Assembly: GCA_024404195.1 (NCBI GenBank)
Contig: JAKSQJ010000002.1
Coordinates: 9,661 to 73,660, forward strand
Length of the DNA stretch: 64,000 bases
Source: Clostridia bacterium
GTDB taxonomy: Bacteria > Bacillota > Clostridia > Oscillospirales > Acutalibacteraceae
Direction of reading: 5' to 3'
A model generated the notes under the pieces. The model ran no database searches, was not told the DNA's origin, and saw only the letters and a program-made list of their open reading frames with translations. Positions within the stretch are counted from its first letter, which is position 1, and each line of letters starts with the position of its first letter. Positions 4,304 through 18,864 of the stretch are shown here, in pieces. A program made the position numbers and the translations under genes.

Positions 4304-4309
4304 GGTTAA

Positions 4310-4590: not shown

Positions 4591-4600
4591 AGGTATTGTT

Positions 4601-5983
4601 ATGAGAAAAATTAAGATTATTGACTATTCCTTAAAAGCGCTTAGCGACAAAAACTTGCTATTCAGGGAAAAGACGGCTATTGCCGAAAATGTGGATAATT
4701 TCGGGGTTGACGCAATAGAGCTTCCCGCCGCTCAAAACATCAAGGAAGATGCCATAATTTACGGAACAATATCCTCGGTTGCTCAAAACAGTGAAATTTG
4801 TCTTCCCGTCGGCTTTGACGAGGAGAAAATCGGCGAGGTTTTTGAGTGCATAAAGAGTGCCAAAAAGCCCTGCCTTCAGGTTGCGGTCCCCGTTTCAACA
4901 ACGACCATGGAATATACCTATCACTATAAAGCCGATAAAATGCTCAAAAAGGTTGACTCCCTTGTTAAAGCGGCAAAAAAATACTGCAAAAATATAGAAT
5001 TTGTCGCAATGGATGCAACAAGAGCCGACAAAGAATATCTTACCGAAATAATAAACACCGCAAAAAACGCAGGTGCAACGGCTGCAACCGTTTGCGACGA
5101 TGCGGGAATTATGACCCCCGAAGCTTTCGGTAATTTAATAAAAACTCTTACCGAAAAATGCGACCTGCCGATATATGTTAAGGTGTCAAACGAGCTTAAT
5201 ATGGCGGTGGCATGCGCTTACTATGCCGTTCTTTGCGGTGCGAGTGGAATAAAGGCGTCCGTTTCGGGCGAAAATGAGCTGAAAACCGCCGATATCGCCG
5301 CCGTTTTGGAGGCGCAAAAGGATGCTCTTCAAATATCCTTTAATCTTAAAACAACACAGCTTAAAAACGATATCGGTAAGCTTAAAAAGGTTGTTAAAAA
5401 AGTCCCCGAAACGAGCGAAACAAGCGCTTCGGACGACGGGCTTTTAATCAGTGCCGAAAGCACGCTTGCCGACATTGAAAAGGCGGCAAAAGCATTGGGT
5501 TATGAGCTTTCGGGCGAGGACATCGGAAAGGTTTATAAATCCCTTGTTCCTTTGTTTGAAAAAAGAACAGGTGTCGGAACAAAAGAGCTTGAAGCAATAA
5601 TAGCCATCGTGGCAAATGAGGCGCCCTCAACCTACCATCTTGACACATATAATATAAATATAAGCAATGTTTCGTCGTCTATGGCAAATGTTGTGCTTAA
5701 AAAGGACGATACTTTACTTGCCGGAATTGCAACGGGCGACGGCCCTATTGATGCCGCTTTCTTGGCTATTGAGCAGGGAACGGGACTTCATTATGAGCTT
5801 GACGGCCTTGAAATTTCGGCAGTTACCGAGGGTAAAGAGGCATTGGGCTCCGCCGTTGTCCGCCTTCGCAGCGAGGGTGTTCTCTATTCGGGAACGGGAC
5901 TTTCTTCCGATATTGTCGGAGCAAGTATAAGAGCATATATCAACGCCCTTAACAAAATCGTATATGAGGAGGGACTTGCTTGA
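4601..5983 (+). CDS. LeuA/HMGL-family protein with degenerate catalytic motifs but an intact LeuA C-terminal allosteric (dimerisation) domain
   Basis: The 460-aa protein has the overall layout of 2-isopropylmalate/citramalate synthase. DTTLRDGEQ is replaced by DYSLKALSD, and the HxHxD metal motif by VKVSNELNMAV. The C-terminal segment GDGPIDAAFLAIEQ...GTGLSSDIVGASIRAYINALNKI keeps the regulatory-domain pattern. The RBS is GGAGG. Confidence 0.7.
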   Translation: MRKIKIIDYSLKALSDKNLLFREKTAIAENVDNFGVDAIELPAAQNIKEDAIIYGTISSVAQNSEICLPVGFDEEKIGEVFECIKSAKKPCLQVAVPVSTTTMEYTYHYKADKMLKKVDSLVKAAKKYCKNIEFVAMDATRADKEYLTEIINTAKNAGATAATVCDDAGIMTPEAFGNLIKTLTEKCDLPIYVKVSNELNMAVACAYYAVLCGASGIKASVSGENELKTADIAAVLEAQKDALQISFNLKTTQLKNDIGKLKKVVKKVPETSETSASDDGLLISAESTLADIEKAAKALGYELSGEDIGKVYKSLVPLFEKRTGVGTKELEAIIAIVANEAPSTYHLDTYNINISNVSSSMANVVLKKDDTLLAGIATGDGPIDAAFLAIEQGTGLHYELDGLEISAVTEGKEALGSAVVRLRSEGVLYSGTGLSSDIVGASIRAYINALNKIVYEEGLA

Positions 5984-8427
5984 AGATAGTATTCTCAACA
6001 AAAGACCATAACGAAAAGTCCTTTGTAGAGCTTTGTAATTTTACAAAATCCTATAACTGCGCCGGTTTTGAGATTTTTGACGCAAAGAGTGAACAAAAAT
6101 ATCACAGCGACAGTATTTTCAGAAATAATCTTGTAAATGCAGGTAAAAGAAAGCTCTATAACAGAGGAATTTCCATTTCGGCGATTTCCTTTCCCTATGC
6201 GGTTGAAAGGGACGATGTTACCGCCGACCAGATATTGAGTTATGTTGATTTTGCCGTTGTTTCGGGTTGCGAAAATGTTATTCTTTTTATAGAAAATGAG
6301 CCCGATATTGAAAAGTTGACGGAAAAACTCGCTTTGGCGGTAAAAAAGGCGGAGGATAACGATATTTCCGTTCTTTTTGAAACAAAAAATTACCTTTCAA
6401 ATTCAAAAAACATCCTTAAAATAATAAACCATATTTCAAGCGCCGCTTTGGGTGCCGCCTGGAATATAAGAGAAACATATTTTGAGGCAAAAGAAACCGC
6501 CGACGAAACGATAGGAATTTTAGGCGCTTATATAAAATATGTGCGTTTAGGTGACCGAAAAGACGGCGTAAATACCCTTATAGGTCAGGGAAAATTACCG
6601 TTTGACGAGTTTTTGGATGCTTTGGCTTCGCTTAATTACGATTCTTTCGTTTGCGCTCTTTGGAATGACGAAATTACTGATGCGGATATTGTTATAACGC
6701 ATTTTGTAAACTTTATTTCCAGTGTTAAAGACGAGCGGAAAAATGCTAAAAAACTCTATTATAACCGTGATAAAAGCGGAACATTTCCGTATAAAAAATA
6801 TACCGTTGTAGATAAAACTTTTCCCCAAGTTCTTGATGATATGGTGGAATGTTATCCCGACCAATATGCCTTTAAGTATTCAACCCTCCAATATAAGAGG
6901 ACTTACAGCGAATTTCGTAAAGATGTTGATAAGGTTGCGGCGGCGCTTATTTCAATAGGTGTAAAGCCGGGGCATCATGTTGCGGTTTGGGCAACCAATG
7001 TTCCCGAATGGTTTTTAACCTTCTGGGCGGCAACAAAAATCGGCGCCGTTTTGGTTACCGTTAATACCGCTTATCGCATAAACGAGATTGAATATCTTTT
7101 GAGGCAGTCGGATACCCATACCCTTGTTATGATAGAAAACTGCAAGGATATTAACTACGGCGAAATAATAAGTGAGCTTTGCCCCGAGCTTAAAACCCTT
7201 AAAGCCGGTGAGCATTTATACAGTAAAAAACTGCCCTTCCTTAAAAATGTCATTACCGTCGGCTTTGATATGGCAGGTTGCCTTAATTGGAACAAGTTTT
7301 TGCTTCGTGCCGACAGTATTCCAAAAGCGGAGGTAAACAGGCGTGCCGCTATGGTTAAGCCCGACGATGTTGCGAATATGCAATATACATCGGGAACAAC
7401 CGGCTTCCCGAAGGGCGTTATGCTTACCCACCGAAACATTATAAATAACGGCAAGATAATAGGCGACCGTATGGACCTTTCAACCGCCGAGCGCATGATG
7501 ATTCAGGTGCCGATGTTCCATTGCTTCGGAATGGTGCTTTCAATGACATCAATGATGACTCACGGCGGAACATTATCACCGCTCCCCTATTTTTCGCCGA
7601 AGTCATCTCTTGCTTGCATAAACGCCGAAAAGATTACCTGCTTTAACGGTGTTCCAACTATGTTTATTGCGATGTTCTCTCACGAGGACTTCAAAAAAAC
7701 CGATTTTTCATATATGAGAACGGGTATTATGGCAGGGTCTAACTGCCCTCCCGAGCTTATGAAAAAGGCGGCAAAGGAAATGAATATGCGAGAAATCCTT
7801 TCGGTTTACGGTCAAACCGAGGCGTCCCCCGGTTGCACTATGGGCGAGGTAAACGAGGATTTGGAGCATAGAACAGAAACCGTCGGAAGTGCTTTTCCGC
7901 TTATTGAATGCAAAATCATTGACCCCGAAACGGGCGAGGATTTGCCGAACGGTCAAAGCGGCGAATTTGTTGTCCGTGGCTTTAATGTTATGAAGGGCTA
8001 TTATAAAATGCCCGCCGCAACAAAACAGGCGATTGATAAGGAAGGTTGGCTCCATTCGGGCGACCTTTGTATGAAAACCGAGGACGGCTATTATAAGGTA
8101 ACGGGCCGTCTTAAGGATATGATTATCCGAGGCGGAGAAAACATCTATCCCCGTGAAATTGAGGAATTTTATTTAACCCATGAAAAGATAAGGGATGTTC
8201 AGGTTGTCGGCGTTAAGGACGAAAGATACGGCGAAGAAGCATGTGCATTCATTATATTAAAGGAAAACGAAACCTCAACCGAAGCCGAAATGCGAGAGTT
8301 CGGTATGAAGCATATAGCAGGTCATAAGGTCCCCCGATATTTTGTATTTACCGATAGTTTCCCGATGAACGCCGCAGGAAAAATCTTAAAATACAAAATG
8401 AAGGAAGATTTTGAGAAAAATCTTTAA
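5980..8427 (+). CDS. Fusion protein: xylose-isomerase-like TIM-barrel domain + AMP-forming acyl-CoA ligase (FadD-like)
   Basis: An 815-aa ORF. Its TTG start overlaps the upstream stop (TTGA) and has a GAGGAGG RBS. The N-terminal ~245 aa resemble sugar-phosphate isomerase/epimerase TIM barrels. The C-terminal part has AMP-binding motifs YTSGTTGFPKGVMLTH, YGQTE, SGDLCMKTEDGYYKVTGRLKD and a terminal AAGKILK. Confidence 0.8.
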   Translation: MKIVFSTKDHNEKSFVELCNFTKSYNCAGFEIFDAKSEQKYHSDSIFRNNLVNAGKRKLYNRGISISAISFPYAVERDDVTADQILSYVDFAVVSGCENVILFIENEPDIEKLTEKLALAVKKAEDNDISVLFETKNYLSNSKNILKIINHISSAALGAAWNIRETYFEAKETADETIGILGAYIKYVRLGDRKDGVNTLIGQGKLPFDEFLDALASLNYDSFVCALWNDEITDADIVITHFVNFISSVKDERKNAKKLYYNRDKSGTFPYKKYTVVDKTFPQVLDDMVECYPDQYAFKYSTLQYKRTYSEFRKDVDKVAAALISIGVKPGHHVAVWATNVPEWFLTFWAATKIGAVLVTVNTAYRINEIEYLLRQSDTHTLVMIENCKDINYGEIISELCPELKTLKAGEHLYSKKLPFLKNVITVGFDMAGCLNWNKFLLRADSIPKAEVNRRAAMVKPDDVANMQYTSGTTGFPKGVMLTHRNIINNGKIIGDRMDLSTAERMMIQVPMFHCFGMVLSMTSMMTHGGTLSPLPYFSPKSSLACINAEKITCFNGVPTMFIAMFSHEDFKKTDFSYMRTGIMAGSNCPPELMKKAAKEMNMREILSVYGQTEASPGCTMGEVNEDLEHRTETVGSAFPLIECKIIDPETGEDLPNGQSGEFVVRGFNVMKGYYKMPAATKQAIDKEGWLHSGDLCMKTEDGYYKVTGRLKDMIIRGGENIYPREIEEFYLTHEKIRDVQVVGVKDERYGEEACAFIILKENETSTEAEMREFGMKHIAGHKVPRYFVFTDSFPMNAAGKILKYKMKEDFEKNL

Positions 8428-8437
8428 AAATTACCAC

Positions 8438-8466
8438 TTGACAAGTATTGTTTCGTGTGATACAAT
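8438..8466 (+). promoter_or_regulatory. SigmaA-type promoter P2 (TTGACA-17-TACAAT)
   Basis: TTGACA at 8438-8443, a 17-nt spacer, and TACAAT at 8461-8466. It begins 10 nt after the stop of the upstream ligase. Confidence 0.6.
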
Positions 8467-8472
8467 TTATCA

Positions 8473-8752
8473 GTAAATTGAATACCTATCAAACAAAAGC
8501 TATGATGAAGACGGAAAATTTATTGTAAAGCTTTTAGAGAGTCGGGGACGGTGGAAGCCCGACAGCCGGATATTTTTTCTTATCACTTCTGAGCCGAAAG
8601 GACGAAACAGCAGTAGTTCTTTCCGTGTGGGCTACGTTAACGCATACGACTTGTTAGAGTCTGAGGGGCACAGTTTTGTGCAATTTGAGTGGTAACGCGG
8701 GTTTAATTTTTAACTCGTCTCAAGGTTTCTTGGGACGGGTTTTATTTATTTT
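8473..8752 (+). promoter_or_regulatory. T-box riboswitch leader 2, specifier AUC (Ile)
   Basis: The AG bulge is AGAGAG and the distal loop is GGUGGAA. The specifier loop reads AUC-A (8582-8585), followed by CUUCU-GA-GC. The T-box sequence CAAUUUGAGUGGUAACGCGG lies at 8681-8700. The terminator CGUCUCAAG/CUUGGGACG plus a U-rich tail lies at 8714-8752. Confidence 0.85.
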
Positions 8753-8764
8753 CGGAGGTAATTT

Positions 8765-11032
8765 ATGAGCACACAAAATCCCATGTCGCAACTTTTGGAT
8801 ATTGCTTTTCGTATTAGAGAAATGCGAGAAATTATGGGTTATTCCGTCGCCGAAATGGCGGAAAAAACCGAGGTTTCCGTTGAGCAATACGAAAATTACG
8901 AAAACTGCAAAACCGATTTGCCTTTTACATTTGTTCATAAATGCGCACTTGTTTTCGGAATTGAGCTTACCGAACTTTTAGAGGGCAGAAGCGCCAAGCT
9001 TTCTTCCTATACCGTAACAAGAAAGGGCAACGGTCAGCAAACCGCCAAGGAAGACGGTATTGATATTGCAAACTTAGCACCCGAATTCAGAAATAAAATA
9101 GCCGAGCCATACTGGGTTAAGTATGATTATTCCGAGGAGCTTCAAAATAAGCCCATTCATTTAACTAACCACAGCGGTCAGGAATTTGACCTTGTTGTTT
9201 CGGGCTCTTTGATGGTGCAGGTAGGCACAAATACCGAAATTCTTAACGAGGGCGACAGTATTTACTATAATTCTTCAACACCTCACGGTATGATAGCCGT
9301 CGGCGGAAAGGATTGCGAATTTTTGGCAGTTGTTCTTCCGGGCGAGGACGAGCAGGAGGAAACTATCCGCACAAGTATTGCCGCCGCAAAACCCTCTAAA
9401 AAGTTGCTTTGCGAAAAATTCGTTAAGACAACCGAGGACGAAAACGGCGCTTTGCAGGATATTAAATTCGTTGATACCGATAAGTTTAATTTCGGCTTTG
9501 ATGTTGTTAATGCTATCGCAAATAAATACCCCGATAAGCTTGCGATGGTGCATATTGACAGAAACAAGAGGGAAAGACAGTTTACCTTTGACGATATAAA
9601 GAGAGAGTCGGCAAGATGCGCTAACTATTTTACAACTATGGGCATCAAAAAGGGCGACAAAGTAATGCTTGTTCTCAAAAGGCATTATCAGTTCTGGTTT
9701 GCTATGGTAGCACTTCATAAAATCGGCGCCGTCGCAATTCCCGCAACATTCTTACTTAAAGAGCACGATTTTGAGTATAGATTTAATGCCGCCGAAATTT
9801 CGGCTATTGTCTGCACTGCCGACGGCGATGTTGCCGAAATTGCCGAAAAAGCCGCAAAAAAATGCAAAACCGTTAAAACCAAAATCATGGTTGGCGGAAA
9901 TAGAGACGGTTGGCACGATTTTGATAATGAATATAAGGTTTATTCAAGCCATTTCCGCAGAAGTGCCGATACTCCCTGCGGTGATGACCCTGCAATCATC
10001 TTCTTCTCCTCGGGAACAACGGGCGAGCCAAAAATGGTTGAACATTCTCATACCTATCCGTTAGGTCATTTCGTAACCGCTAAATATTGGCATTGTTGCG
10101 AAAGGGACGGTCTTCACTTCACCATTTCCGACACCGGTTGGGGTAAATCCCTTTGGGGAAAACTTTACGGACAGTGGCTTTGCGAGGGTGCCGTATTTGT
10201 TTATGACTTTGACCGCTTTGACGCTTCTGATATTTTGCCGATGTTCAAAAAGTATAATGTTACAACATTCTGCGCTCCCCCTACCATGCTTCGTATGATG
10301 GTAAAAGAAGACCTTACAAAATATGATTTTTCGTCTGTTAAGCATATGACAACCGCAGGCGAGGCGCTTAATCCCGAGGTTGCAAAGCAGTTTAAGGAAG
10401 CAACCGGACTTACGATTTATGAGGGCTTCGGTCAAACCGAAACCACCCTTACGGTTGCAAATCTTGGCGGAACAAGGACAAAAATCGGCTCAATGGGCAA
10501 ACCTTCTCCGCAATATGAAATTGACATTGTTGACCATGACGATAAGCCGGTCGCAAACGGCGAAACGGGCGAAATCGTTATAAAACTTCAAAACGGCAAC
10601 CCCGTCGGTCTTTTCAGACAATACCTAAAAGAGCCCGAAAAAACCAAAGAGGTAAGAAGAAACAACCTTTATCATACGGGCGATACCGCTTGGCGAGATG
10701 AATCGGGATATTTTTGGTATGTCGGCAGGGTTGACGATATTATTAAATCGTCAGGTTACCGTATAGGGCCGTTTGAAATTGAAAATGTTATTATGGAGCT
10801 TCCGTATGTTCTTGAATGCGGTGTTTCCGCCGAGCCCGACGAAATAAGGGGTCAGATTGTTAAGGCAAGTATCGTTTTAACAAAGGGAACAAAGCCGAGC
10901 GAAGAACTCAAAAAGGAAATCCAGAATTATGTTAAGAGCCATACTGCTCCTTATAAATATCCCCGTCTTGTTGTGTTTAAGGACGAGCTTCCGAAAACCA
11001 ATAACGGAAAAATAATGCGCAGTTTACTGTAA
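8765..11032 (+). CDS. Fusion protein: XRE-family HTH + cupin domain + medium-chain (ACSM/MacS-like) AMP-forming acyl-CoA synthetase
   Basis: A 755-aa ORF. The N-terminus (IREMREIMGYSVAEMAEKTEVSVEQYENYE) is HTH_3-like. The cupin core is HSGQEFDLVVSGSLMVQVG...GDSIYYNSSTPHGM. The synthetase part has FFSSGTTGEPKMVEHSH, EGFGQTET, YHTGDTAWRDESGYFWYVGRVDD and a terminal NNGKIMR. Confidence 0.85.
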   Translation: MSTQNPMSQLLDIAFRIREMREIMGYSVAEMAEKTEVSVEQYENYENCKTDLPFTFVHKCALVFGIELTELLEGRSAKLSSYTVTRKGNGQQTAKEDGIDIANLAPEFRNKIAEPYWVKYDYSEELQNKPIHLTNHSGQEFDLVVSGSLMVQVGTNTEILNEGDSIYYNSSTPHGMIAVGGKDCEFLAVVLPGEDEQEETIRTSIAAAKPSKKLLCEKFVKTTEDENGALQDIKFVDTDKFNFGFDVVNAIANKYPDKLAMVHIDRNKRERQFTFDDIKRESARCANYFTTMGIKKGDKVMLVLKRHYQFWFAMVALHKIGAVAIPATFLLKEHDFEYRFNAAEISAIVCTADGDVAEIAEKAAKKCKTVKTKIMVGGNRDGWHDFDNEYKVYSSHFRRSADTPCGDDPAIIFFSSGTTGEPKMVEHSHTYPLGHFVTAKYWHCCERDGLHFTISDTGWGKSLWGKLYGQWLCEGAVFVYDFDRFDASDILPMFKKYNVTTFCAPPTMLRMMVKEDLTKYDFSSVKHMTTAGEALNPEVAKQFKEATGLTIYEGFGQTETTLTVANLGGTRTKIGSMGKPSPQYEIDIVDHDDKPVANGETGEIVIKLQNGNPVGLFRQYLKEPEKTKEVRRNNLYHTGDTAWRDESGYFWYVGRVDDIIKSSGYRIGPFEIENVIMELPYVLECGVSAEPDEIRGQIVKASIVLTKGTKPSEELKKEIQNYVKSHTAPYKYPRLVVFKDELPKTNNGKIMRSLL

Positions 11033-11039
11033 AAAACTG

Positions 11040-11068
11040 TTGACAAATAGGAATTCTTGTATTATACT
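11040..11068 (+). promoter_or_regulatory. SigmaA-type promoter P3 (TTGACA-17-TATACT)
   Basis: TTGACA at 11040-11045, a 17-nt spacer, and TATACT at 11063-11068. It begins 7 nt after the upstream stop codon. Confidence 0.6.
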
Positions 11069-11074
11069 TTGAGA

Positions 11075-11356
11075 ATAAAGGCAAAGACGAAGAGGACTTT
11101 ATTATTCCGAAATTTAGAGAGATAACGGTTGGTGAAAGTTATCGGTAGGGTAATTTGGTTGTAACTTCTGAGCTGAAGGGAAGAAAGCATTTTTGCAAGT
11201 AGAGCCCTTTCGTGTAGGCTGCGTTAATGCATACGGCTTGTTAGAGCCTGAGTGGCACTTTTTTGTGCAATTTGAGTGGTACCGCGGGTGTATTTTGATA
11301 TTTTTTACGCTCGTCTCAAAGTATTAAGCTTTGGGACGGGTGTTTTTTCGTTTTTT
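11075..11356 (+). promoter_or_regulatory. T-box riboswitch leader 3, specifier GUA (Val)
   Basis: The AG bulge is AGAGAG and the distal loop is GGUGAAA. The stem AGAGG/CUUCU closes the specifier loop, which reads GUA-A (11161-11164), followed by CUUCU-GA-GC. The T-box sequence CAAUUUGAGUGGUACCGCGGG lies at 11268-11287. The terminator CGUCUCAAAG/CUUUGGGACG plus a U-run ends near 11356. The 3' half is clearly paralogous to leader 2. Confidence 0.85.
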
Positions 11357-11378
11357 GTCCCGAACAGGAGGTTATGGT

Positions 11379-13667
11379 ATGCAAGAAATAAGCAATCTTG
11401 ATTATAAAATCAAGGAAATGGCGGGGCGTATTAAAGAGCTTCGTGAAATTGAGGGCGTTTCTCCCGAAGAAATGGCTCAAAAAACCGATGTTTCCGTCAG
11501 TGAATACCTTTCCTGCGAAAGCGGAGAAAGCGACTTAAACTTTGCATTTCTTTACCGTTGCGCATTGGCGCTTAATGTCAATGTTACCGATATAATTGAG
11601 GGTCACAGTCCTACCCTTAAGGCATTTACCGTTACAAAAAAAGGCAAGGGTCAGGAAATTGCGAATGCTCACGGTATGACATATTACAATATGGCTTATG
11701 CTTTCAAAAACAGAATTGCCGAGCCGCTTTATGTTAAATCAAATTACGACGAATCAGCCCAAACGAAAGAAATTGAGCTTACAACCCATGAGGGACAGGA
11801 GCTTGATATTATAATTTCTGGTCAGCTTCGTGTTCAGATAGGTGAGCATAGCGAGGTTTTAAGCGAGGGCGACAGTGTTTACTTTAATTCCTCAACCCCC
11901 CACGGTATGATAGCCGTCGGCGGTAAGGACTGCGAGTTTTATGCCATTGTCCTTAATCCTACGGGGGAACCCATTCCCGAGCTTATTCCGACAAAGGCGA
12001 TTGAGTTTGAAAAGGAAGTAAAGCAGGATACAAGCGACAGAGTTTACCGCAAGTATGTTGATATCGTTAAAAACGATAAGGGAACACCTACATCAATTAA
12101 ATTTAAGAACACAGATAAGTTTAACTTTGCCTTTGATGTTGTTGACGAAATGGCAAACAAAAACCCGAATAAACTCGCCATGCTTCATATTGACCGCAAC
12201 GAAACAGAGAGAAGATTTACCTTCCTTGATATGAAGAAAGAGTCGGCAAGATGCGCAAACTATTTCAGTTCTTTGGGAATTAAAAAGGGCGACAGAGTTA
12301 TGCTTGTTTTAAGGCGTAATTATCAGTTTTGGCCCATAATGTTAGGCCTTAATAAGTTGGGCGCTATTGCAATTCCCGCAACAAGCCAACTTCTTCCGCA
12401 TGACCTTGAATACAGATTTGATAAGGCGGGAGTTACCTCTATTGTCTGCACTTCGGACGATAATTCCCCCGATTCCGCCGACACTGCCGCCGCTACATAC
12501 GGTAAAATGAAAAACAAGATTATCGTAGGCGGTAAAAGAGACGGTTGGAGAGAATTTGATAAAGAATATAAGCGCTTCAGCTCAACCTATGAGCGAACAA
12601 AGGATTCTCCCTGCGGCGATGACCTTCTTCTTATGTTCTTTACTTCGGGAACTTCGGGTTATCCGAAAATTGCCGCTCATAACCATAAATATCCTTTCGG
12701 ACATTTTGTTACGGCTAAATATTGGCATTGCTGCGACCCCGACGGACTTCATTTTACAATTTCCGATACGGGCTGGGCTAAGGCAATGTGGGGCAAGCTT
12801 TACGGTCAGTGGTTCTGCGAAGCCGCAACCTTTGTTTATGACTTTGACCGTTTTGATGCATCAAAGATAATGCCGATGTTCGCAAAGCATAAAATAACAA
12901 CCTTTTGCGCTCCGCCTACTATGCTTCGTATGATGATAAAGCAGGATTTATCAAATTATGATTTTTCGTCCGTTAAGCATATGACAACCGCAGGCGAGGC
13001 ACTTAACCCCGAGGTTTATAAGCAATTTAAGAATTTGACGGGACTTCATATTATTGAGGGCTTCGGTCAAAGCGAATCTACCATGATGATAGGCAATCTT
13101 CGTGGCGCTCCGCATAAAATCGGCTCAATGGGTAAACCCTGCCCGATTTATGATATTGACCTTTTGGACAGCGACGGTAACCCCGTTGCCATCGGTGAAA
13201 CGGGCGAAATTTGCGTAAATGTTAAAAACGGTGCGCCCTGCGGACTGTTTACCGGTTACTATAACGACCCCGAAAAGACCGACGAGGCAATTCACGACGG
13301 TTATTACCATACCGGCGATACCGCTTGGAAGGACGAGGACGGTTTCTATTGGTTTGTCGGCAGAGTTGACGATGTTATTAAATCATCGGGCTACCGTATA
13401 GGACCCTTTGAAATAGAAAGCGTTATTATGGAGCTTCCCTATGTTCTTGAATGCGGCGTTTCCCCCGAGCCCGATGAAATAAGGGGACAAATTGTTAAAG
13501 CAAGTATTGTTTTAACAAAGGGAACTAAGCCGACCGAGGAACTTAAAAAAGAAATCCAAAACTATGTTAAACAGCATACCGCTCCTTATAAATACCCCCG
13601 TCTTGTTGTGTTCAGAGATGAACTTCCGAAAACAACAAGCGGTAAGATAATGCGAAATAAGCTTTAA
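11379..13667 (+). CDS. Fusion protein: XRE-family HTH + cupin domain + medium-chain AMP-forming acyl-CoA synthetase (paralog of 8765..11032)
   Basis: I prefer the ATG at 11379 (RBS AGGAGG) over the TTG at 11331, which lies inside the T-box terminator. The domain order matches the upstream paralog and the C-terminal ~90 aa are nearly identical. Motifs present are FFTSGTSGYPKIAAHNH, EGFGQSES and YHTGDTAWKDEDGFYWFVGRVDD. Confidence 0.85.
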   Translation: MQEISNLDYKIKEMAGRIKELREIEGVSPEEMAQKTDVSVSEYLSCESGESDLNFAFLYRCALALNVNVTDIIEGHSPTLKAFTVTKKGKGQEIANAHGMTYYNMAYAFKNRIAEPLYVKSNYDESAQTKEIELTTHEGQELDIIISGQLRVQIGEHSEVLSEGDSVYFNSSTPHGMIAVGGKDCEFYAIVLNPTGEPIPELIPTKAIEFEKEVKQDTSDRVYRKYVDIVKNDKGTPTSIKFKNTDKFNFAFDVVDEMANKNPNKLAMLHIDRNETERRFTFLDMKKESARCANYFSSLGIKKGDRVMLVLRRNYQFWPIMLGLNKLGAIAIPATSQLLPHDLEYRFDKAGVTSIVCTSDDNSPDSADTAAATYGKMKNKIIVGGKRDGWREFDKEYKRFSSTYERTKDSPCGDDLLLMFFTSGTSGYPKIAAHNHKYPFGHFVTAKYWHCCDPDGLHFTISDTGWAKAMWGKLYGQWFCEAATFVYDFDRFDASKIMPMFAKHKITTFCAPPTMLRMMIKQDLSNYDFSSVKHMTTAGEALNPEVYKQFKNLTGLHIIEGFGQSESTMMIGNLRGAPHKIGSMGKPCPIYDIDLLDSDGNPVAIGETGEICVNVKNGAPCGLFTGYYNDPEKTDEAIHDGYYHTGDTAWKDEDGFYWFVGRVDDVIKSSGYRIGPFEIESVIMELPYVLECGVSPEPDEIRGQIVKASIVLTKGTKPTEELKKEIQNYVKQHTAPYKYPRLVVFRDELPKTTSGKIMRNKL

Positions 13668-13677
13668 GAGGGCGTTT

Positions 13678-14400
13678 ATGAAAATATCGGTTATTCAAAT
13701 GGATGTTAAGCTTAATGCTCCCGATATTAACTTTAATAAGGCGAAAAAACTTATCAAAGAAGCGGTAAGTGAGGACCCCGATGTAATCGTTTTGCCCGAA
13801 ACCTTTAATGTCGGCTTTTTTCCGAAGGATATAAAAAGGGAATTTTGCGATATTGACGGAAAAAGGGTAAAAGAAGAAATCGGAAAACTTGCAAAAGAGT
13901 ATAATGTTAATATCGTTGCCGGCTCTGTTGCGAACATAAAAAACGGTAATCTTTATAATACCGCCTATGTTTTTTCAAGGTCGGGCGAGCAAATAGCCGA
14001 ATACGATAAAATCAATTTGTTTTCGGCTATGGACGAGGATAAATACTTTAATAAGGGCGATAAAACCGTTCGTTTTTATCTTGACGGGCATCCCTGCACA
14101 CTTATTATTTGCTATGATATCCGCTTCCCCGAAATTATAAGAAAAGCAACGGCAAATGAGCCGACTGACCTTTTGTTTATCTTATCCGAATGGCCGAAAG
14201 TCAGAATAAACGAACTAACCGCTCTTGTTACCGAAAGGGCAACGGAAAACAGAATGTTTGCCGTTTGCTCAAACTCCTGCGGAAAGGCAAACGATGTAAA
14301 ATATGGCGGAAATTCGGTTATTGTTGACCCGCTCGGCAATATTCTCATAAAAGCAGAAGAAACCGAAAGCATCATAACCGCAAACTGCGATATACAATAA
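13678..14400 (+). CDS. Carbon-nitrogen hydrolase (Nit/omega-amidase, YafV/MtnU-like)
   Basis: A 240-aa ORF. The E-K-C triad context is visible: VLPETFN, YDKINLF and LIICYDIRFPE. The start lies 10 nt after the upstream stop, so the gene is co-transcribed. Confidence 0.75.
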   Translation: MKISVIQMDVKLNAPDINFNKAKKLIKEAVSEDPDVIVLPETFNVGFFPKDIKREFCDIDGKRVKEEIGKLAKEYNVNIVAGSVANIKNGNLYNTAYVFSRSGEQIAEYDKINLFSAMDEDKYFNKGDKTVRFYLDGHPCTLIICYDIRFPEIIRKATANEPTDLLFILSEWPKVRINELTALVTERATENRMFAVCSNSCGKANDVKYGGNSVIVDPLGNILIKAEETESIITANCDIQ

Positions 14401-14420
14401 ATTTTAAGTAGGAATAAACA

Positions 14421-15092
14421 ATGCGAGATTATAAGCGACTTACAATAATATGCGGACATTACGGAAGCGGTAAAACAAATATCGCCGTAAATATGGCGTT
14501 AGAGCTTTGCAAAATCCGTGAAAATGTTGCCGTTGCCGACCTTGATATTGTTAATCCTTATTTCAGAACAAAGGACAGCGAGGAAGATTTTAAGGCAAAC
14601 GGAATAAAACTTATTTGTTCGCAGTTTGCAAATACAAATCTTGATTTACCGTCGCTTCCTGCCGATTTATATTCAATAACCGATGATAAGGAAACCTCGG
14701 TTATTCTTGATATCGGCGGTGATGACAGGGGTGCTTTTGCTTTGGGCAGATTAAGCCCCGAAATAATCAAAGAAAATAACTATGATATGTATTATGTCAT
14801 CAATAAATACCGTCCCTTAACTCCCGATGCCGAGTCGGCTTATGAGATAATGCTTGAAATTGAAGCGGCTTGCGGAATTAAGTTTACGGGAATTCTCAAC
14901 AACTCAAATTTGGGCTCGCAAACTTCGGCGGAAGATGTTCTTAATTCTTTGGAGTTTGCGGATAGATTATCCGAAATTTCTTCTTTGCCTGTTAAAGCCA
15001 CCTGCATAGAAAAACGGCTTGAAGACGAGCTTAAAGATAAAATTCCAAACTTGTTTTCAATGAAATTGCAAAACAAAATAATAGACGGTTAA
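14421..15092 (+). CDS. P-loop NTPase of unknown function, UreG/HypB (G3E)-like motif pattern
   Basis: A 223-aa ORF with Walker A GHYGSGKTN, a Walker B-like VILDIGGDDRG (compare UreG ESGGDNL) and INKY at the position of NKxD. Confidence 0.5.
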   Translation: MRDYKRLTIICGHYGSGKTNIAVNMALELCKIRENVAVADLDIVNPYFRTKDSEEDFKANGIKLICSQFANTNLDLPSLPADLYSITDDKETSVILDIGGDDRGAFALGRLSPEIIKENNYDMYYVINKYRPLTPDAESAYEIMLEIEAACGIKFTGILNNSNLGSQTSAEDVLNSLEFADRLSEISSLPVKATCIEKRLEDELKDKIPNLFSMKLQNKIIDG

Positions 15093-15184
15093 TAAACCGA
15101 TTATTGTGTTAAAAATTTTGAGGACTTGACAGCGAAATGTTGCCTTAGCTCTTAAAAGTATATAAATTGAAAGGAAAGATGATT

Positions 15185-15391
15185 ATGGCTAAACTTACTT
15201 TTAAAACAGATAATTGTAAGGGCTGCGGACTTTGCGTTGATGCTTGTCCGAAAAATCTGTTGCTTTTGGCGCAGGACAAAATAAACAAAAAGGGACATCA
15301 TCCTGTTGAAATTTCAAATATGGATGAATGCATAGGTTGCGCTTCCTGCGCTGTTATGTGCCCCGACTGTATAATAAAGGTAGAAAGGTGA
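15185..15391 (+). CDS. 2-oxoacid:ferredoxin oxidoreductase delta subunit (2x[4Fe-4S] ferredoxin)
   Basis: Two CxxCxxCxxxCP motifs are present (CKGCGLCVDACP and CIGCASCAVMCP). The start is uncertain: ATG at 15185, 15179, or TTG at 15167. Confidence 0.8.
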   Translation: MAKLTFKTDNCKGCGLCVDACPKNLLLLAQDKINKKGHHPVEISNMDECIGCASCAVMCPDCIIKVER

Positions 15392-15397
15392 TAAATT

Positions 15398-16465
15398 ATG
15401 GCAGACAAGGTTCTTATGAAAGGTAACGAAGCGATAGCCGAAGCCGCTATAATCGCCGGTTGCCGTCACTATTTCGGATATCCGATTACACCGCAAACCG
15501 AGGTTGCCGCATATATGGCAAAGAAGATGCCGAAAATCGGCGGAACATTTTTGCAGGCAGAAAGCGAAATTGCGGCTATCAGTATGGTTTACGGCGTATC
15601 CTCGGCAGGATACAGAGTTATGACCTCTTCTTCATCCCCCGGAATATCCTTAAAGCAAGAGGGAATATCCTATCTTGCTGGTTCCGACCTTCCGGCACTT
15701 ATTGTTAATGTTCAAAGAGGCGGTCCCGGACTCGGCGGTATTCAACCCTCTCAGTCGGATTATTTTCAGGCAACAAAGGGCGGCGGACACGGCGACTATC
15801 ATTTGATAGTTTTGGCTCCTGCCTCCGTTCAGGAAATGGCAGAGCTAACAATAAAGGGTTTTGACCTTGCCGATAAATACAGAATGCCGACAATGCTCCT
15901 TGCCGACGGCACTATGGGACAAATGATGGAGCCGGTATCTCTTGATGAGTATTCCGACATTAAAACATTTGATAAGCCCTGGGCAACCAACGGAACAAAG
16001 ATGAACAGAGAACATAATATTACAAACTCTTTGTCGCTCGTTCCCGAAGAACTTGAACAGTTGAATATAGCAAGATATGAGCGTTATAAAATTGTTGAAG
16101 AAAACGAAACCATGTATGAAGAATACTATATGGATGATGCCGAAATCTGCATTGCGGCTTTCGGTATTGCGGCAAGAGTTTCGCTCCATGCAGTAGAAAA
16201 GGCAAGAAAAGAAGGCATAAAGGTCGGTATGATAAGACCTATAACTCTTTGGCCGTTCCCGAGCGCACCGTTCAAAAAAGCGGCTCCGCATCTTAAACAC
16301 ATTATGTCGGTAGAGCTTTCTATGGGACAGATGATAGAGGATGTTAAACTCGCTTGTGAATGTTGTTGCCCTGTAACCCTTTGCAACCGTGTCGGCGGTA
16401 TGATTCCCGACCCGTTGCAGGTTCTTGAAAGAATTAAAGAAGTCAATAAGGAGGTAAACGGATAA
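15398..16465 (+). CDS. 2-oxoacid:ferredoxin oxidoreductase alpha subunit (VorB/KorA type)
   Basis: A 355-aa ORF. The N-terminus MKGNEAIAEAAIIAGCRHYFGYPITPQTE is typical of OFOR alpha subunits. The gene is followed by coupled beta and gamma genes. Confidence 0.85.
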   Translation: MADKVLMKGNEAIAEAAIIAGCRHYFGYPITPQTEVAAYMAKKMPKIGGTFLQAESEIAAISMVYGVSSAGYRVMTSSSSPGISLKQEGISYLAGSDLPALIVNVQRGGPGLGGIQPSQSDYFQATKGGGHGDYHLIVLAPASVQEMAELTIKGFDLADKYRMPTMLLADGTMGQMMEPVSLDEYSDIKTFDKPWATNGTKMNREHNITNSLSLVPEELEQLNIARYERYKIVEENETMYEEYYMDDAEICIAAFGIAARVSLHAVEKARKEGIKVGMIRPITLWPFPSAPFKKAAPHLKHIMSVELSMGQMIEDVKLACECCCPVTLCNRVGGMIPDPLQVLERIKEVNKEVNG

Positions 16466-17229
16466 TGGTAGTATTTGAAAAACCGCACGCACTAATTGAT
16501 GTGCCGCTTCATTATTGTCCGGGTTGTACTCACGGTATAGTGCATAGATTGGTAGCCGAAGTAATAGACGAATTAGGCATTGAAGGTCAAACCATAGGTA
16601 TAGCACCTGTTGGCTGTTCCGTTATGGCTTATAATTATTTTAATTGCGATATGATAGAGGCGGCTCACGGCAGAGCACCGGCAGTTGCTACCGGCGTTAA
16701 GCGAGCAGACCCCGATAACAATATCGTATTCACCTATCAGGGTGACGGCGACTTGGCATCCATCGGAACTGCCGAAACAGTTCACGCCGCCGCAAGAAAC
16801 GAAAATATAACCATAATCTTTATAAATAACGCAATTTACGGTATGACCGGCGGTCAAATGGCTCCTACCTCGCTTCCCGGTCAGATAACCCAGACCTCTC
16901 CCTACGGCAGAGACCCGAAGCTTTGCGGTTATCCGATTAAGGTTTGCGAAATGCTTTCCGAACTTGACGGCCCCGAATATTTAGAGCGTGTTGCCGTAAA
17001 TAATGTTAAGAATGTAAGAAATGCCAAAAAAGCCATTAAAAAGGCGTTCCAAAATCAGATAGATAAAAAGGGATTTTCTCTTGTAGAGGTTATTTCAACC
17101 TGCCCGACCAACTGGGGACTTACTCCTAAAAAGGCTCTTGAATGGGTTGACGAAAAGATGATTCCGTATTATCCGCTCGGCGTTTATAAGGATAGAAGCG
17201 CCGCACAGGACGAAAAGGAGGAAGGTTAA
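16465..17229 (+). CDS. 2-oxoacid:ferredoxin oxidoreductase beta subunit (TPP-binding)
   Basis: A 254-aa ORF with YCPGCTHG and the GDGD...NNxxYGMTGGQ TPP-binding motif. It has a TAATG overlap with the alpha gene. Confidence 0.85.
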   Translation: MVVFEKPHALIDVPLHYCPGCTHGIVHRLVAEVIDELGIEGQTIGIAPVGCSVMAYNYFNCDMIEAAHGRAPAVATGVKRADPDNNIVFTYQGDGDLASIGTAETVHAAARNENITIIFINNAIYGMTGGQMAPTSLPGQITQTSPYGRDPKLCGYPIKVCEMLSELDGPEYLERVAVNNVKNVRNAKKAIKKAFQNQIDKKGFSLVEVISTCPTNWGLTPKKALEWVDEKMIPYYPLGVYKDRSAAQDEKEEG

Positions 17230-17766: not shown

Positions 17767-17787
17767 TACTGAAAGGAAGAGTTTTTT

Positions 17788-18849: not shown

Positions 18850-18864
18850 TAGCTGAAAAGCAGT

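Follow-up and report, generated by a model that had tools for sequence, protein, structure and literature searches.

Closest described systems

T-box leaders of the transcription-attenuation class (Rfam RF00230), such as those of ileS, valS, leuS and ilv-leu in B. subtilis, share a Stem I with K-turn, specifier loop, AG bulge and distal loop, followed by Stem II, the IIA/B region, Stem III, an antiterminator with a UGGN bulge and a competing terminator. Canonical specifiers in ileS, valS and leuS of B. subtilis are AUC, GUA and CUC, the same three as here. T-boxes are recognised to evolve by duplication with a change of specificity (PMC3766115, citing Vitreschak 2008; PMC2494555), and neither of these two surveys mentions acyl-CoA ligases or ferredoxin oxidoreductases.

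Among characterised enzymes, two acyl-CoA ligases come closest to those described here. MacsMa, the medium-chain acyl-CoA synthetase of Methanosarcina acetivorans (PDB 3ETC), prefers 2-methylbutyrate (PMC10455477). MbcS, the methylbutyryl-CoA synthetase of S. aureus (NF047394), acts selectively on 2-methylbutyrate and isobutyrate, with isovalerate a poor substrate (PMC10026030). Branched volatile acids are carboxylated and then aminated in a route described for rumen bacteria (PMC7356843, citing Allison 1962), in which 2-methylbutyrate, isobutyrate and isovalerate yield Ile, Val and Leu via 2-ketoisovalerate:ferredoxin oxidoreductase (VOR; Allison and co-workers, 1960s). Our literature search for the activation genes of this route or their regulation found no paper assigning them, and a genome-scale reconstruction of gut-microbiome amino-acid biosynthesis does not mention the rumen carboxylation route.

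Organization of the locus

The locus lies in the window, the whole 64,000-nucleotide stretch of a Clostridia bacterium contig that was analysed and to which all positions refer. The two cassettes studied here, 8438–11032 (Ile) and 11040–13667 (Val), are homologous and in tandem, and sit within a 14.6-kb unit (4.3–18.9 kb) with the following features.

4275–4574, +, Leu promoter and T-box leader (Rfam span 4314–4553; specifier CUC 4403–4405; terminator 4548–4574)
4601–5983, +, LeuA-like protein (HMGL-like and LeuA_dimer) behind the Leu T-box (domain matches, synteny)
5980–8427, +, xylose-isomerase-like TIM barrel fused to a FadD/4CL-type CoA ligase, behind the Leu T-box (synteny)
8438–8466, +, Ile-cassette promoter (–35 TTGACA 8438–8443; 17-nt spacer with the TG of an extended –10; –10 TACAAT 8461–8466)
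8493–8725, +, Ile T-box leader (RF00230, 102.6 bits against a gathering score of 93)
8582–8584, +, Ile specifier AUC, followed by A8585, the 4-bp helix CUUC and the K-turn UGAGC
8682–8701, +, Ile T-box core AAUUUGAGUGGUAACGCGGG (UGGU 8690–8693)
8712–8751, +, intrinsic terminator of the Ile leader (13-bp stem and U tract)
8765–11032, +, Lig1, 755 aa (Pfam HTH_3/HTH_19, Cupin_2, AMP-binding and AMP-binding_C)
11040–11068, +, Val-cassette promoter (TTGACA-17-TATACT)
11075–11321, +, Val T-box leader (RF00230, 86.8 bits, E 1.8e-19, under the gathering score of 93)
11161–11163, +, Val specifier GUA, followed by A11164, the helix CUUC and UGAGC
11269–11288, +, Val T-box core AAUUUGAGUGGUACCGCGGG (UGGU 11277–11280)
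11307–11353, +, intrinsic terminator of the Val leader (16-bp stem and U tract)
11379–13667, +, Lig2, 762 aa (the same four domains as Lig1)
13678–14400, +, CN_hydrolase, beginning 10 nt past the Lig2 stop and co-transcribed with Lig2
14421–15092, +, MinD/Mrp-like P-loop protein, co-transcribed with Lig2
15167–17766, +, 2-oxoacid:ferredoxin oxidoreductase as a whole (synteny in >50 loci)
15167–15391, +, its delta subunit (ferredoxin-like)
15398–16465, +, its alpha subunit (NCBIfam VorB, 3-methyl-2-oxobutanoate dehydrogenase subunit, 538.8 bits against a cutoff of 399)
16465–17229, +, its beta subunit
17230–17766, +, its gamma subunit
17788–18849, +, IlvE, branched-chain amino acid aminotransferase (466.9 bits against a cutoff of 307)
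18865–18906, no strand, strong bidirectional terminator at the end of the unit (terminator scan)

What these leaders gate is not an aminoacyl-tRNA synthetase, a classical ilv/leu enzyme or a transporter: it is AMP-forming short-chain acyl-CoA ligases that carry a fused HTH-cupin part, with a ferredoxin oxidoreductase after them. Three branched-chain specificities, each with its own promoter, stand in series. As the Leu T-box upstream gates a different ligase fusion, the whole of 4.3–18.9 kb can be regarded as a three-gate branched-chain amino acid unit; the poor use of isovalerate by MbcS mirrors this different ligase family behind the Leu gate. Orthologous Leu leaders all carry CTC (29/29). 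The rumen route is known from labelling experiments. Its three predicted steps, activation, a VorB-type oxidoreductase and IlvE, are exactly those represented in the unit. MAGs from the guts of ruminants and other animals account for most occurrences of the cluster.

Each cassette consists of a near-consensus promoter, a T-box leader and a gene for an XRE-HTH/cupin/AMP-forming ligase fusion, so that the common order given by the sequence-only reading (TTGACA-17 promoter, T-box, fusion gene) holds in both copies. The two promoters are the top two + strand promoter matches in 4000–19500 (11/12 each), and a TTGACA-17-TAnnnT promoter lies 5' of nearly all orthologous Ile leaders (n = 77). That the promoter had been duplicated along with the cassette can be upheld only in that both copies have one, since the segments from promoter to T-box start are 44% identical and homology is not demonstrable outside the consensus hexamers. 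A search for a conserved operator at the cassette promoters found none.

The Val promoter begins 7 nt past the Lig1 stop codon with no terminator between. On the + strand from the Val-leader terminator to 18865, a scan gave no intergenic or long-stem terminator-like site, and the remaining matches in that span are stems of 5–8 pairs inside genes. The oxidoreductase and IlvE are behind the Val T-box only.

T-box leaders and their specifiers

The two leaders are T-boxes with an Ile and a Val specifier, respectively. The AG bulge and distal loop, Stem II, the IIA/B region, Stem III and the antiterminator could all be identified in the Ile leader. Analysis of 24 orthologous leaders with RNAalifold showed that 21 of 33 pairs hold their pairing through two-sided changes, and covariation also supports the Val leader, whose orthologues exceed the RF00230 gathering score (95.6–101.6 bits). 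Covariance-model alignment confirmed the specifiers of the sequence-only reading, AUC and GUA; the GUA frame is a sensible one because adjacent frames at this site would read UAG or UAA. The specifier column is ATC in 79/79 Lig1 leaders and GTA or GTC in 63/63 Lig2 leaders, a count that excludes two further GTA/GTC leaders whose downstream gene is lost at a contig end.

The tRNA 3' end NCCA, with A as the discriminator, would be the pairing partner of UGGU in the Ile core. In both leaders the terminator overlaps the antiterminator, and the 5' arm of the Ile terminator is the antiterminator 3' strand. Three points at this level count against the functional reading preferred below: the Ile core deviates once, with A replacing the highly conserved C at 8695 in the motif GGUACCGCG; 29% of the Ile leaders have C, not a purine, right after the specifier; and the Val leader of this genome scores below the gathering threshold.

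The ligase fusions

Lig1 comprises an XRE-type HTH (aa 14–74), a cupin (aa ~80–195), a linker and an AMP-forming acyl-CoA ligase (aa ~216–755), with the HTH_3/HTH_19 and Cupin_2 matches above the Pfam gathering scores. A ribosome-binding site GGAGG stands 6 nt upstream of its start, and AGGAGG stands 7 nt upstream of ATG 11379, the start of Lig2. A mechanically called Lig2 start at TTG 11331 was set aside, as it falls inside the terminator. The N-terminal part resembles XRE-HTH plus cupin regulators such as PuuR in its domain order, first an XRE-type HTH and then a Cupin_2 barrel, but it is covalently fused to an enzyme and the PuuR model gives only 19.9 bits (cutoff 211). It may add a second layer of regulation that responds to a specific ligand.

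Of the proteins with solved structures, MacsMa matches the ligase domain best, aligning end to end over aa 216–752 (E 1.5e-186, ~51% identity). Lig1 has in common with MacsMa the alternate-pocket Trp (KYW), the Gly of DTGW-G-K and the GFGQTE Gly in place of Acs Trp414/416, whereas Lig2 has Ala at DTGWxK; MacsMa is archaeal, unfused (no HTH-cupin) and without a T-box. MbcS is the top NCBIfam model for both Lig1 and Lig2, yet at 450 and 444 bits they fall far under its equivalog cutoff of 850, and MbcS itself is a single unfused enzyme for lipid-primer supply with no T-box reported. We propose that Lig1 is a 2-methylbutyrate-CoA ligase and Lig2 an isobutyrate-CoA ligase.

The shortfall from the MbcS cutoff would also suit other chemistry, on 2-oxo, hydroxy or aromatic acids, or a catabolic flow from amino acid via acyl-CoA to acid with the AMP-forming enzyme reversed. 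In L201 a third fusion paralogue (43% identical) adjoins a class I/II aminotransferase, which suggests that the ligase-fusion family is functionally diverse. Set against this are the ~51% identity to a 2-methylbutyrate enzyme and the conserved KYW Trp and GFGQTE Gly; read-through of a T-box moreover needs uncharged tRNA, which means amino acid shortage and is the wrong signal for catabolism. We consider such alternatives very unlikely.

Age and origin of the pair

The sequence-only reading took the cassettes for a tandem duplication, and leaders and genes are indeed true paralogues. Its observations on the ends of the copies were accurate, including the quoted peptides: the 3' halves of the leaders are 85% identical, the last 100 residues of the proteins 90%, and the last 90 differ at few positions (81/90 identical). 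Together these could mean that the tandem duplication is recent and confined to this genome, or that gene conversion in this genome only makes it look so, with the specifier difference incidental. Pairwise alignment gave another picture. The proteins are 62.6% identical, dS is 1.27 (saturated) and dN/dS ranges from 0.01 to 0.58. Nor is divergence confined to three places as had been claimed, since identity is 35–50% in the HTH, ~30% in the linker and 40–70% over large parts of the ligase's N-terminal half, and 60% both in the 5' half of the leaders and from terminator to start.

Orthologues of each copy (~75% identical) occur in the same order and with the same specifiers in about 58 of 80 species genomes, and gene order is conserved across the 80 species loci. 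Orthologues of Lig1 are 71–82% identical to it, and for either copy the orthologues are closer than the paralogue is. The split between the two clades has a bootstrap of 40/40 in the ligase domain and likewise in the HTH-cupin domain. The cassettes are therefore an ancient conserved paralogous pair, not a duplication of this genome. As judged by dS, synteny, orthologue closeness, specifier counts and the bootstrap split, a recent origin is refuted and retains next to no probability.

The 3' leader half and the C-terminus are conserved across the whole family and so are not leftovers of recent copying. Two paralogues from one genome nevertheless resemble each other at the 3' end more than a pair drawn from different genomes does, by 6.6 points overall and by 15.8 at third codon positions; the similarity reflects family-wide purifying selection plus some gene conversion. 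A switch from Ile to Val, as originally proposed, fits the data in its direction: the basal and divergent relatives, among them a 551-aa ligase without the fusion, are without exception Ile/Gly, and the archaeal outgroup MacsMa is alike.

Coupling of specifier and a putative acyl-pocket residue

The coupling was examined in 80 genome loci and 39 metagenome cassettes. One codon in each ligase gene takes part in it.

10142–10144, +, codon GGT of Lig1 Gly460 (DTGW-G-K), aligned with Val310 of S. enterica acetyl-CoA synthetase
12777–12779, +, codon GCT of Lig2 Ala467 (DTGW-A-K), the Val-type state of this pocket position

A check of the residue numbering supported the match to Acs Val310, which reportedly lines the acyl pocket. 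Specifier, ligase clade and Gly/Ala state are coupled: Ile goes with Gly in 100/100 cassettes and Val with Ala in 70/71 (genome and metagenome sets), the sole exception among the 171 being a Val-type cassette with Gly (L110_2879). When all columns were scanned, the DTGWxK site was the only one in the ligase domain scoring >0.99 for specifier tracking. On contig L115 the ligase domains have been homogenised by gene conversion (78% identical mutually against 69% to either clade), and the coupling still holds.

The proposal that riboswitch specificity and enzyme pocket changed together is broadly borne out for the specifier and the Gly/Ala residue, but at a site other than the one named, and a change in substrate preference is what the residue suggests. 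The pocket site lies 96 residues upstream of GFGQxE, and the residues following GFGQ[T/S]E, where the divergence had been placed, are absent from the specifier-tracking columns. The HTH-cupin part, treated as conserved in the same account, contains in its cupin domain most of the specifier-tracking residues and the strongest specifier-linked divergence.

This distribution bears on whether the duplication was regulatory only, with one acid range for both ligases, a single activity that responds independently to starvation for Ile or for Val, and Gly/Ala and N-terminal differences that tune kinetics or regulation, not substrate choice. The tracking residues are mostly outside the catalytic domain, and the other three of four canonical pocket positions are the same in both paralogues (K461/K468, A531/A538, G556/G563). 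MbcS activates both acids, the adenylation range of MacsMa is broad, and one Val-type member has Gly. However, the residue is fixed in 170/171 cassettes and outlasts homogenisation of the remaining ligase domain, which argues for selection on it; Gly to Ala removes about one methyl of space, matching the difference between C5 2-methylbutyrate and C4 isobutyrate; and two copies are kept in about 58 species. We regard a purely regulatory duplication as unlikely.

Proposed function

We favour, as reasonably probable, tRNA-gated activation of 2-methylbutyrate (Ile) and isobutyrate (Val), with reductive carboxylation and then transamination as the later steps; the acid substrates, their split between Lig1 and Lig2 and the direction of flux are what we infer. 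Uncharged tRNA-Ile (anticodon GAU) would pair with the AUC specifier and the antiterminator-bulge UGGU, the terminator at 8712–8741 would not form, and Lig1 (Gly460) would be made and convert 2-methylbutyrate to 2-methylbutyryl-CoA. Uncharged tRNA-Val (anticodon UAC) would likewise allow read-through of the GUA leader, and Lig2 (Ala467) would activate isobutyrate, with the CN-hydrolase, the P-loop protein, the ferredoxin oxidoreductase and IlvE on the same transcript. The oxidoreductase may then carboxylate the acyl-CoAs reductively to 3-methyl-2-oxopentanoate and 2-oxoisovalerate, which IlvE would aminate to Ile and Val. Induction by uncharged tRNA fits a biosynthetic rather than a catabolic role. 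A clean substrate split is not guaranteed, as MbcS and MacsMa each take 2-methylbutyrate and isobutyrate or related acids.

Alternatively, the acyl-CoAs could mainly prime branched-chain fatty acid synthesis, with the T-boxes signalling that the amino acids from which these primers normally come are scarce. Primer supply is the established role of MbcS in S. aureus (PMC10026030, PMC11167679), the best NCBIfam model here, and divergent Ile-type cassettes are solitary, with no oxidoreductase nearby. Co-transcription of the ligases with a VorB-type oxidoreductase and IlvE in >50 loci, and a unit in which no FabH or fatty-acid synthesis genes were found, make lipid-primer salvage very unlikely as the main role. 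The lipid-primer and amino-acid roles are not mutually exclusive.

The solitary Ile-type cassettes also count against tRNA-gated amino acid synthesis, as does L110_2879 with its Gly. A rise of oxidoreductase and IlvE under Ile-only starvation is likewise unexplained when both stand behind the Val T-box only. On the favoured reading, the unit as a whole would turn branched volatile fatty acids into branched-chain amino acids under three T-box gates, and this uncultured gut or rumen Clostridium probably makes Ile and Val from the matching short branched fatty acids.

Two cassettes with Ile and Val T-box leaders

The stretch 8438–13667 of the + strand holds two units in head-to-tail order, made up of the following elements:

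8438–8466, + strand, promoter of unit 1, TTGACA-17-TACAAT with an extended -10 (11/12 match)
8493–8725, + strand, Ile T-box leader (Rfam RF00230, 102.6 bits)
8582–8584, + strand, Ile specifier AUC
8712–8741 plus U tract, + strand, intrinsic terminator of the Ile leader
8765–11032, + strand, Lig1, fusion gene of 755 aa with HTH_3/HTH_19, Cupin_2, AMP-binding and AMP-binding_C domains (Pfam)
11040–11068, + strand, promoter of unit 2, TTGACA-17-TATACT (11/12 match), beginning 7 nt past the Lig1 stop codon
11075–11321, + strand, Val T-box leader (RF00230, 86.8 bits, E 1.8e-19)
11161–11163, + strand, Val specifier GUA
11307–11343, + strand, intrinsic terminator of the Val leader
11379 (start ATG, behind AGGAGG), + strand, Lig2, paralogue of 762 aa with the same four Pfam domains as Lig1

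A mechanical ORF list places the start of Lig2 at TTG 11331, which was set aside in favor of the ATG. The two promoters are the top + strand matches in a 15.5-kb scan, and almost every orthologous locus has its own near-consensus promoter before each leader.

Leaders were assigned to the T-box family by a covariance-model score of at least 93 bits, the curated gathering score of RF00230. The Ile leader scores above this value, while the Val leader is under it in the window; Val leaders of orthologous loci in other genomes reach 95.6–101.6 bits. The specifier, defined in the covariance-model alignments as the three bases preceding the last unpaired base of the specifier loop, is AUC in the first leader and GUA in the second, as had also been read from the sequence alone. 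Both are followed by an unpaired A, the short helix CUUC and the K-turn sequence UGAGC (AUC-A-CUUC-UGAGC, 8582–8594; GUA-A-CUUC-UGAGC, 11161–11173). Shifted frames at the Val site give UAG or UAA, so alternative specifier frames make no sense. AUC, GUA, and CUC are the specifiers of classical ileS, valS, and leuS leaders. The base after the specifier is C, not a purine, in 23 of 79 Ile leaders.

At the position of the S-turn (AGUA/GAA) both leaders have GACG/GAGG on the 5′ side and no GAA on the 3′ side, with a low posterior probability of the alignment there. Both contain the AG bulge UAGAGAG, followed by the distal loop GGUGGAA (Ile) or UUGGUGAAA (Val), elements that support the tRNA elbow; the AGAGA of this bulge is at least 90% conserved in the Ile and the Val leader clade. 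The T-box core AAUUUGAGUGGUA(A/C)CGCGGG, with the UGGN bulge in the antiterminator, is found at 8682–8701 (Ile) and 11269–11288 (Val), and in each leader the terminator shares the CUCGUCUC strand with the antiterminator. The Ile leader of the window has GGUAACGCG at 8690–8698 in this highly conserved antiterminator bulge, where at least 90% of the orthologous leaders and the Val leader have GGUACCGCG. In a consensus built with RNAalifold from leaders of different genomes (12 Ile, 12 Val), 21 of 33 predicted pairs were kept despite two-sided changes; these covarying pairs belong to the distal helix of Stem I, to Stem II, to the IIA/B hairpins, and to the antiterminator. We propose read-through by the cognate uncharged tRNA as the predicted role of both leaders.

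Two MacsMa-type ligases differing at a probable pocket position

Both proteins are AMP-forming acyl-CoA synthetases (ANL superfamily) by their domains and by the catalytic A10 lysine in the PX4GK motif at their C-termini (PKTNNGK in Lig1, codons within 10990–11020; PKTTSGK in Lig2, within 13625–13655). In other AMP-forming synthetases this motif is a site of regulatory lysine acetylation. The AMP-binding and AMP-binding_C domains score above Pfam gathering, with 235.5 and 74.2 bits for Lig1 and 204.1 and 74.4 bits for Lig2. The best NCBIfam model for both is MbcS (NF047394; 449.7 bits for Lig1 and 443.7 bits for Lig2); the curated cutoff of 850 rules out membership of the MbcS equivalog, although MbcS is still the closest model. 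MbcS of S. aureus activates 2-methylbutyrate and isobutyrate, and isovalerate poorly (PMC10026030).

The closest structure match to the ligase domain (residues 216–752) is MacsMa from Methanosarcina acetivorans (PDB 3ETC; E 1.5e-186, about 51% identity). MacsMa has 2-methylbutyrate as preferred substrate; a Gly replaces Trp414/416 of acetyl-CoA synthetase, and an alternate Trp259 shapes a small branched-acid pocket (PMC10455477). Like MacsMa, both paralogues have the alternate Trp (TAKYWHCC) and the Gly (GFGQTE/GFGQSE), which places them with the MacsMa-type branched short-chain ligases.

Residues were compared with S. enterica Acs, whose numbering was verified against the PDB sequence. Acs GW-V310-T311-GH has a gap-free alignment with GW-G460-K461 (Lig1) and GW-A467-K468 (Lig2), and by alignment V386 corresponds to A531/A538 and W414 to G556/G563 (Lig1/Lig2). 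These four Acs residues (V310, T311, V386, and W414) reportedly line the acetate pocket, and the DTGW-[G/A]-K site (G460/A467) is taken by us to be an acyl-pocket position via its equivalence to V310. MacsMa has Gly here, like the Ile-type Lig1. A change from Gly to Ala would fit a substrate one carbon smaller, and the candidate substrates are probably 2-methylbutyrate for Lig1 and isobutyrate for Lig2.

An old and conserved pair

Lig1 and Lig2 are 62.6% identical at the protein level (473/755), and the Nei-Gojobori estimates for the whole genes are dN 0.28 and dS 1.27, the latter saturated. The sequence-only reading had proposed following dN/dS along the gene; it lies between 0.01 and 0.58 across 40-codon windows, so that this pairwise comparison, which has little power at saturated dS, gave no window with a sign of positive selection. 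The strings quoted in that reading are all correct. Its view that divergence is concentrated in three places does not hold: identity is 35–50% in the HTH, about 30% in the linker, and 40–70% over a large part of the N-terminal half of the ligase. It reaches 90% in the last 100 residues. For the leaders, overall identity is 71% (5′ half 60%, 3′ half up to the T-box core 85%, terminator to start codon 60%). Between promoter and T-box start the identity is only 44%, and homology of the promoters is therefore not demonstrable.

A protein search found thousands of full-length fusion proteins. The best 120 of these are 74–82% identical to Lig1 and thus much nearer to it than Lig2 is. In a scan with each species represented by a single genome, a Lig1 orthologue (71–77% identity) was present at 80 loci, in Acutalibacteraceae, Oscillospiraceae, and other Clostridia MAGs, mostly from the gut of goat, sheep, cattle, yak, deer, and rabbit. 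About 58 of the 80 have a Lig2 orthologue directly after Lig1, and the order kept is Lig1, Lig2, (CN-hydrolase), (IlvE), P-loop protein, ferredoxin, oxidoreductase alpha-beta-gamma, (IlvE). Mean identity is 77% within Lig1, 73% within Lig2, and 62% between them. The split between the two clades has a bootstrap of 40/40 in the ligase domain and, separately, 40/40 in the HTH-cupin part, from which it follows that the gene was already fused when it was duplicated. The saturated dS and the orthologues that are closer than the paralogue rule out a recent duplication; the pair is old and conserved.

The likeness of the C-termini and of the 3′ leader halves could also be ascribed to gene conversion. 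As its sole cause this is ruled out, because each part has one consensus, shared by the Lig1 and Lig2 clades across all genomes. On top of this family-wide conservation there is a moderate signal of gene conversion: paralogues from the same genome exceed cross-genome pairs in identity by 3–4 points throughout, and this excess doubles in the last 100 codons (+6.6 points overall, +15.8 at third positions). In one tandem Ile/Val pair from another contig (L115:3194–8568), the ligase domains have been homogenized (78% identical to each other and 69% to either clade), while the N-terminal domains (44% identical), the specifiers, and the Gly/Ala site remain distinct, which we read as evidence of domain-limited gene conversion.

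The sequence-only reading had asked whether relatives include one-cassette ancestors. Seven loci with Lig1 alone before the oxidoreductase were found, but their nested position within the Lig1 clade suggests that Lig2 was secondarily lost or relocated. Deeper single Ile-type cassettes do exist, and these stand alone.

One ligase residue tracks the specifier

With an nhmmer leader profile, a T-box was found before every ligase gene in the 80 loci. The specifier column reads ATC in all Lig1 leaders (79/79) and GTA (61) or GTC (2) in all Lig2 leaders (63/63). Two more leaders, whose downstream gene is lost at the contig end, have one GTA and one GTC, and the leaders of a LeuA-like gene have CTC (29/29). 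Apart from GTA/GTC in Lig2 the column is invariant inside each leader clade. Among the protein columns, 19 are at least 90% conserved in each clade with differing residues, 14 of them in the HTH-cupin part and 5 in the ligase.

To part phylogenetic signal from specificity, metagenome contigs were scanned for the common leader motif CAATTTGAGTGGTACCGCG. This gave 39 additional T-box and ligase cassettes, including clades only 55–60% identical to either paralogue and one unfused ligase of 551 aa. At the DTGW-[G/A]-K site, an Ile specifier goes with Gly in 19/19 and a Val specifier with Ala in 12/13 of the metagenome cassettes, and the combined genome and metagenome sets give 100/100 and 70/71. 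The lone exception (L110_2879, L110:314–2879) has a GTA (Val) specifier and a Lig2-like ligase with Gly at DTGWxK. The other four clade-separating ligase columns fail as specificity sites in the divergent metagenome clades and reflect phylogenetic signal only.

When all columns of 178 sequences were ranked, the DTGW-[G/A]-K site scored 0.993 and was the sole ligase-domain column above 0.99; the next ones, at about 0.97, are S581/[AV]588 and Q583/[ILV]590, both within the GSMGKxxPxY loop. The remaining top columns that track the specifier (E96/A97, D97/H98, I99/M100, Y116/L117, and P53/N54) belong to the N-terminal domain, and most specifier-linked residues sit in the fused XRE-HTH and cupin part. 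The sequence-only reading had placed the change around the GFGQ[T/S]E pocket motif, and the region after this motif does not track the specifier. Its central idea, that leader and enzyme changed together, is broadly borne out by the specifier tracking Gly/Ala in 170 of 171 cases; the timing and the location of the change had to be corrected. Every basal branch of a neighbor-joining tree with MacsMa as root is Ile/Gly, which makes the Val/Ala type the derived one; the tree is weakly resolved at depth (rooted monophyly of each clade 28–30/50 bootstrap).

The 3′ leader motif of the metagenome loci (L081–L200) is also found before unrelated ORFs, with ATC before ORFs of 441–444 aa, CTC before ORFs of 398 aa, and ATG (Met) before ORFs of 427–429 aa. 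Other amino-acid genes may have acquired leaders of this lineage.

The fused HTH-cupin domain

The assignment to HTH_3/HTH_19 and Cupin_2 holds at the domain level only. The domain weakly resembles SinR, the 434 repressor, the HppE cupin, and the PuuR cupin; a PDB sequence search with the N-terminal part gave SinR and the 434 repressor (E about 0.005) and the HppE cupin, all weak. For the N-terminal 215 aa, AlphaFold gave a model too poor to use (mean pLDDT 59, residues 74–118 below 50). A PuuR-like transcription factor was rejected at 19.9 bits against the PuuR cutoff of 211 and with no conserved operator. Near 169 promoters (77 Ile, 63 Val, and 29 Leu) we found no conserved operator or palindrome, and no conserved k-mer besides A-tracts and the extended -10. 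In the window an inverted repeat at 8460–8483 (ATACAATTTA-4 nt-TAAATTGAAT) spans the -10 of the Ile promoter, and locus L003 has the perfect palindrome TATTCAATTGAATA at that place. As an operator this palindrome was ruled out, since it is not conserved over the 77 Ile promoters. The specifier-linked residues of the XRE-HTH and cupin part suggest that it may act in ligand sensing.

Among 1.84 billion representatives at 50% identity, about three clusters are full-length fusions, and the nearest others are unfused ligases of 540–570 aa. One locus (L201:1438–7978) has an Ile T-box, fusion A (769 aa, 58% identical to Lig1, with Gly), fusion B, and a class I/II aminotransferase. With 758 aa and 43% identity, fusion B has neither its own T-box nor the DTGWGK motif and is a third paralogue type.

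The surrounding unit and its possible Leu arm

The wider unit is delimited by the following elements:

4275–8427, + strand, Leu unit, with a third promoter and T-box
4314–4553, + strand, Leu T-box (112.4 bits), specifier CUC at 4403–4405
13678–14400, + strand, CN_hydrolase gene, beginning 10 nt past the Lig2 stop and followed by a gene for a MinD/Mrp-like P-loop protein
18865–18906, bidirectional, strong terminator closing the unit

After the P-loop protein come a small ferredoxin, the oxidoreductase subunits alpha, beta, and gamma, and IlvE (466.9 bits, cutoff 307). The alpha subunit passes the VorB cutoff (538.8 vs. 399 bits), which places the complex with the 2-ketoisovalerate:ferredoxin oxidoreductases (VOR). 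Beta, gamma, and delta match 2-oxoacid:ferredoxin oxidoreductase models below cutoff, so the substrate range is not fixed by the VorB match of alpha. The CN_hydrolase, present in only some orthologous loci, has nitrilase and PRK10438 amidohydrolase as best NCBIfam models, both below cutoff; it could be an omega-amidase that pulls glutamine-dependent transamination forward.

On the + strand between 4.3 and 18.9 kb, the three T-box terminators are the longest-stemmed and the only intergenic terminator-like sites; the remaining hits are intragenic with stems of 5–8 pairs. The oxidoreductase and IlvE are placed solely behind the terminator of the Val T-box (11343–18865), with no other clear promoter or terminator between; in the single-cassette loci they follow the Ile gate. 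The flanks are unrelated, with a trehalase-like hydrolase upstream and metH and metF downstream on the opposite strand. There are no tRNA genes in the window; the tRNA-Lys near some loci is uninformative. Some loci carry inserted accessory genes: between Lig1 and the Val T-box, one for a GDSL-like hydrolase (L073:12281–13600); after Lig1, one for an ACT and metallo-beta-lactamase-fold protein (L076:6102–7541); and after the TIM-barrel ligase, one for an Amidohydro_2 protein (L074:8833–9663).

The Leu T-box gates a LeuA-like protein (HMGL-like and LeuA_dimer), far below the NCBIfam LeuA cutoffs, and a xylose-isomerase-like TIM barrel fused to a FadD/4CL-type CoA ligase. This arrangement is kept in 29 loci, upstream or downstream of the Ile/Val/oxidoreductase block, and the gene pair may be an isovalerate/Leu arm. 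Control of a different ligase subfamily by the Leu gate is consistent with the poor use of isovalerate by MbcS.

Taken together, the genes of the unit provide for activation, reductive carboxylation, and transamination. Rumen bacteria are known to turn branched volatile fatty acids into branched-chain amino acids by this route (PMC7356843, citing Allison 1962). With uncharged tRNA as the controlling signal, biosynthesis is a better fit than fermentation.

Meaning of the three-gate unit

Taken separately, T-box leaders, their duplication with altered specificity, MacsMa/MbcS-type ligases, and the carboxylation route are already known. In T-box regulon surveys, gut-microbiome amino-acid reconstruction, and the full-text literature, with incomplete coverage, we found no report of a T-box-gated cluster of branched-acid ligases and oxidoreductase or of an HTH-cupin-ligase fusion. 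Nor did we find there a description of these features together, with T-boxes acting on acyl-CoA ligases, the Ile/Val paralogues conserved as a pair, three gates and an oxidoreductase in one unit, and the HTH-cupin fusion. The XRE-HTH and cupin fused to an acyl-CoA ligase is an uncharacterized architecture.

It has been recognized since the 1960s that branched volatile fatty acids are growth factors of rumen Firmicutes, and these acids also serve as feed supplements. To our knowledge, the genes that activate them and their regulation are poorly assigned.

A joint reading of these observations is possible, and we offer it tentatively. The T-box specifiers would be natural labels that expose a minimal specificity switch, in which Gly to Ala at one pocket position and a retuned HTH-cupin sensor would turn a 2-methylbutyrate/Ile module into an isobutyrate/Val module. 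The HTH-cupin part would add a second input from a small molecule (branched acid, acyl-CoA, or amino acid), so that tRNA charging and a ligand would both control each ligase. The three-gate unit would then supply the hitherto unassigned genes behind the need of gut and rumen Clostridia for branched volatile fatty acids as growth factors.

The Gly/Ala residue is the single candidate specificity residue, and the pair offers a clean natural example of riboswitch and enzyme specificity shifting together. The RNA switch before each ligase names the amino acid served, which gives a direct, testable annotation of three ligases and the neighboring oxidoreductase in many uncultured Acutalibacteraceae and Oscillospiraceae.
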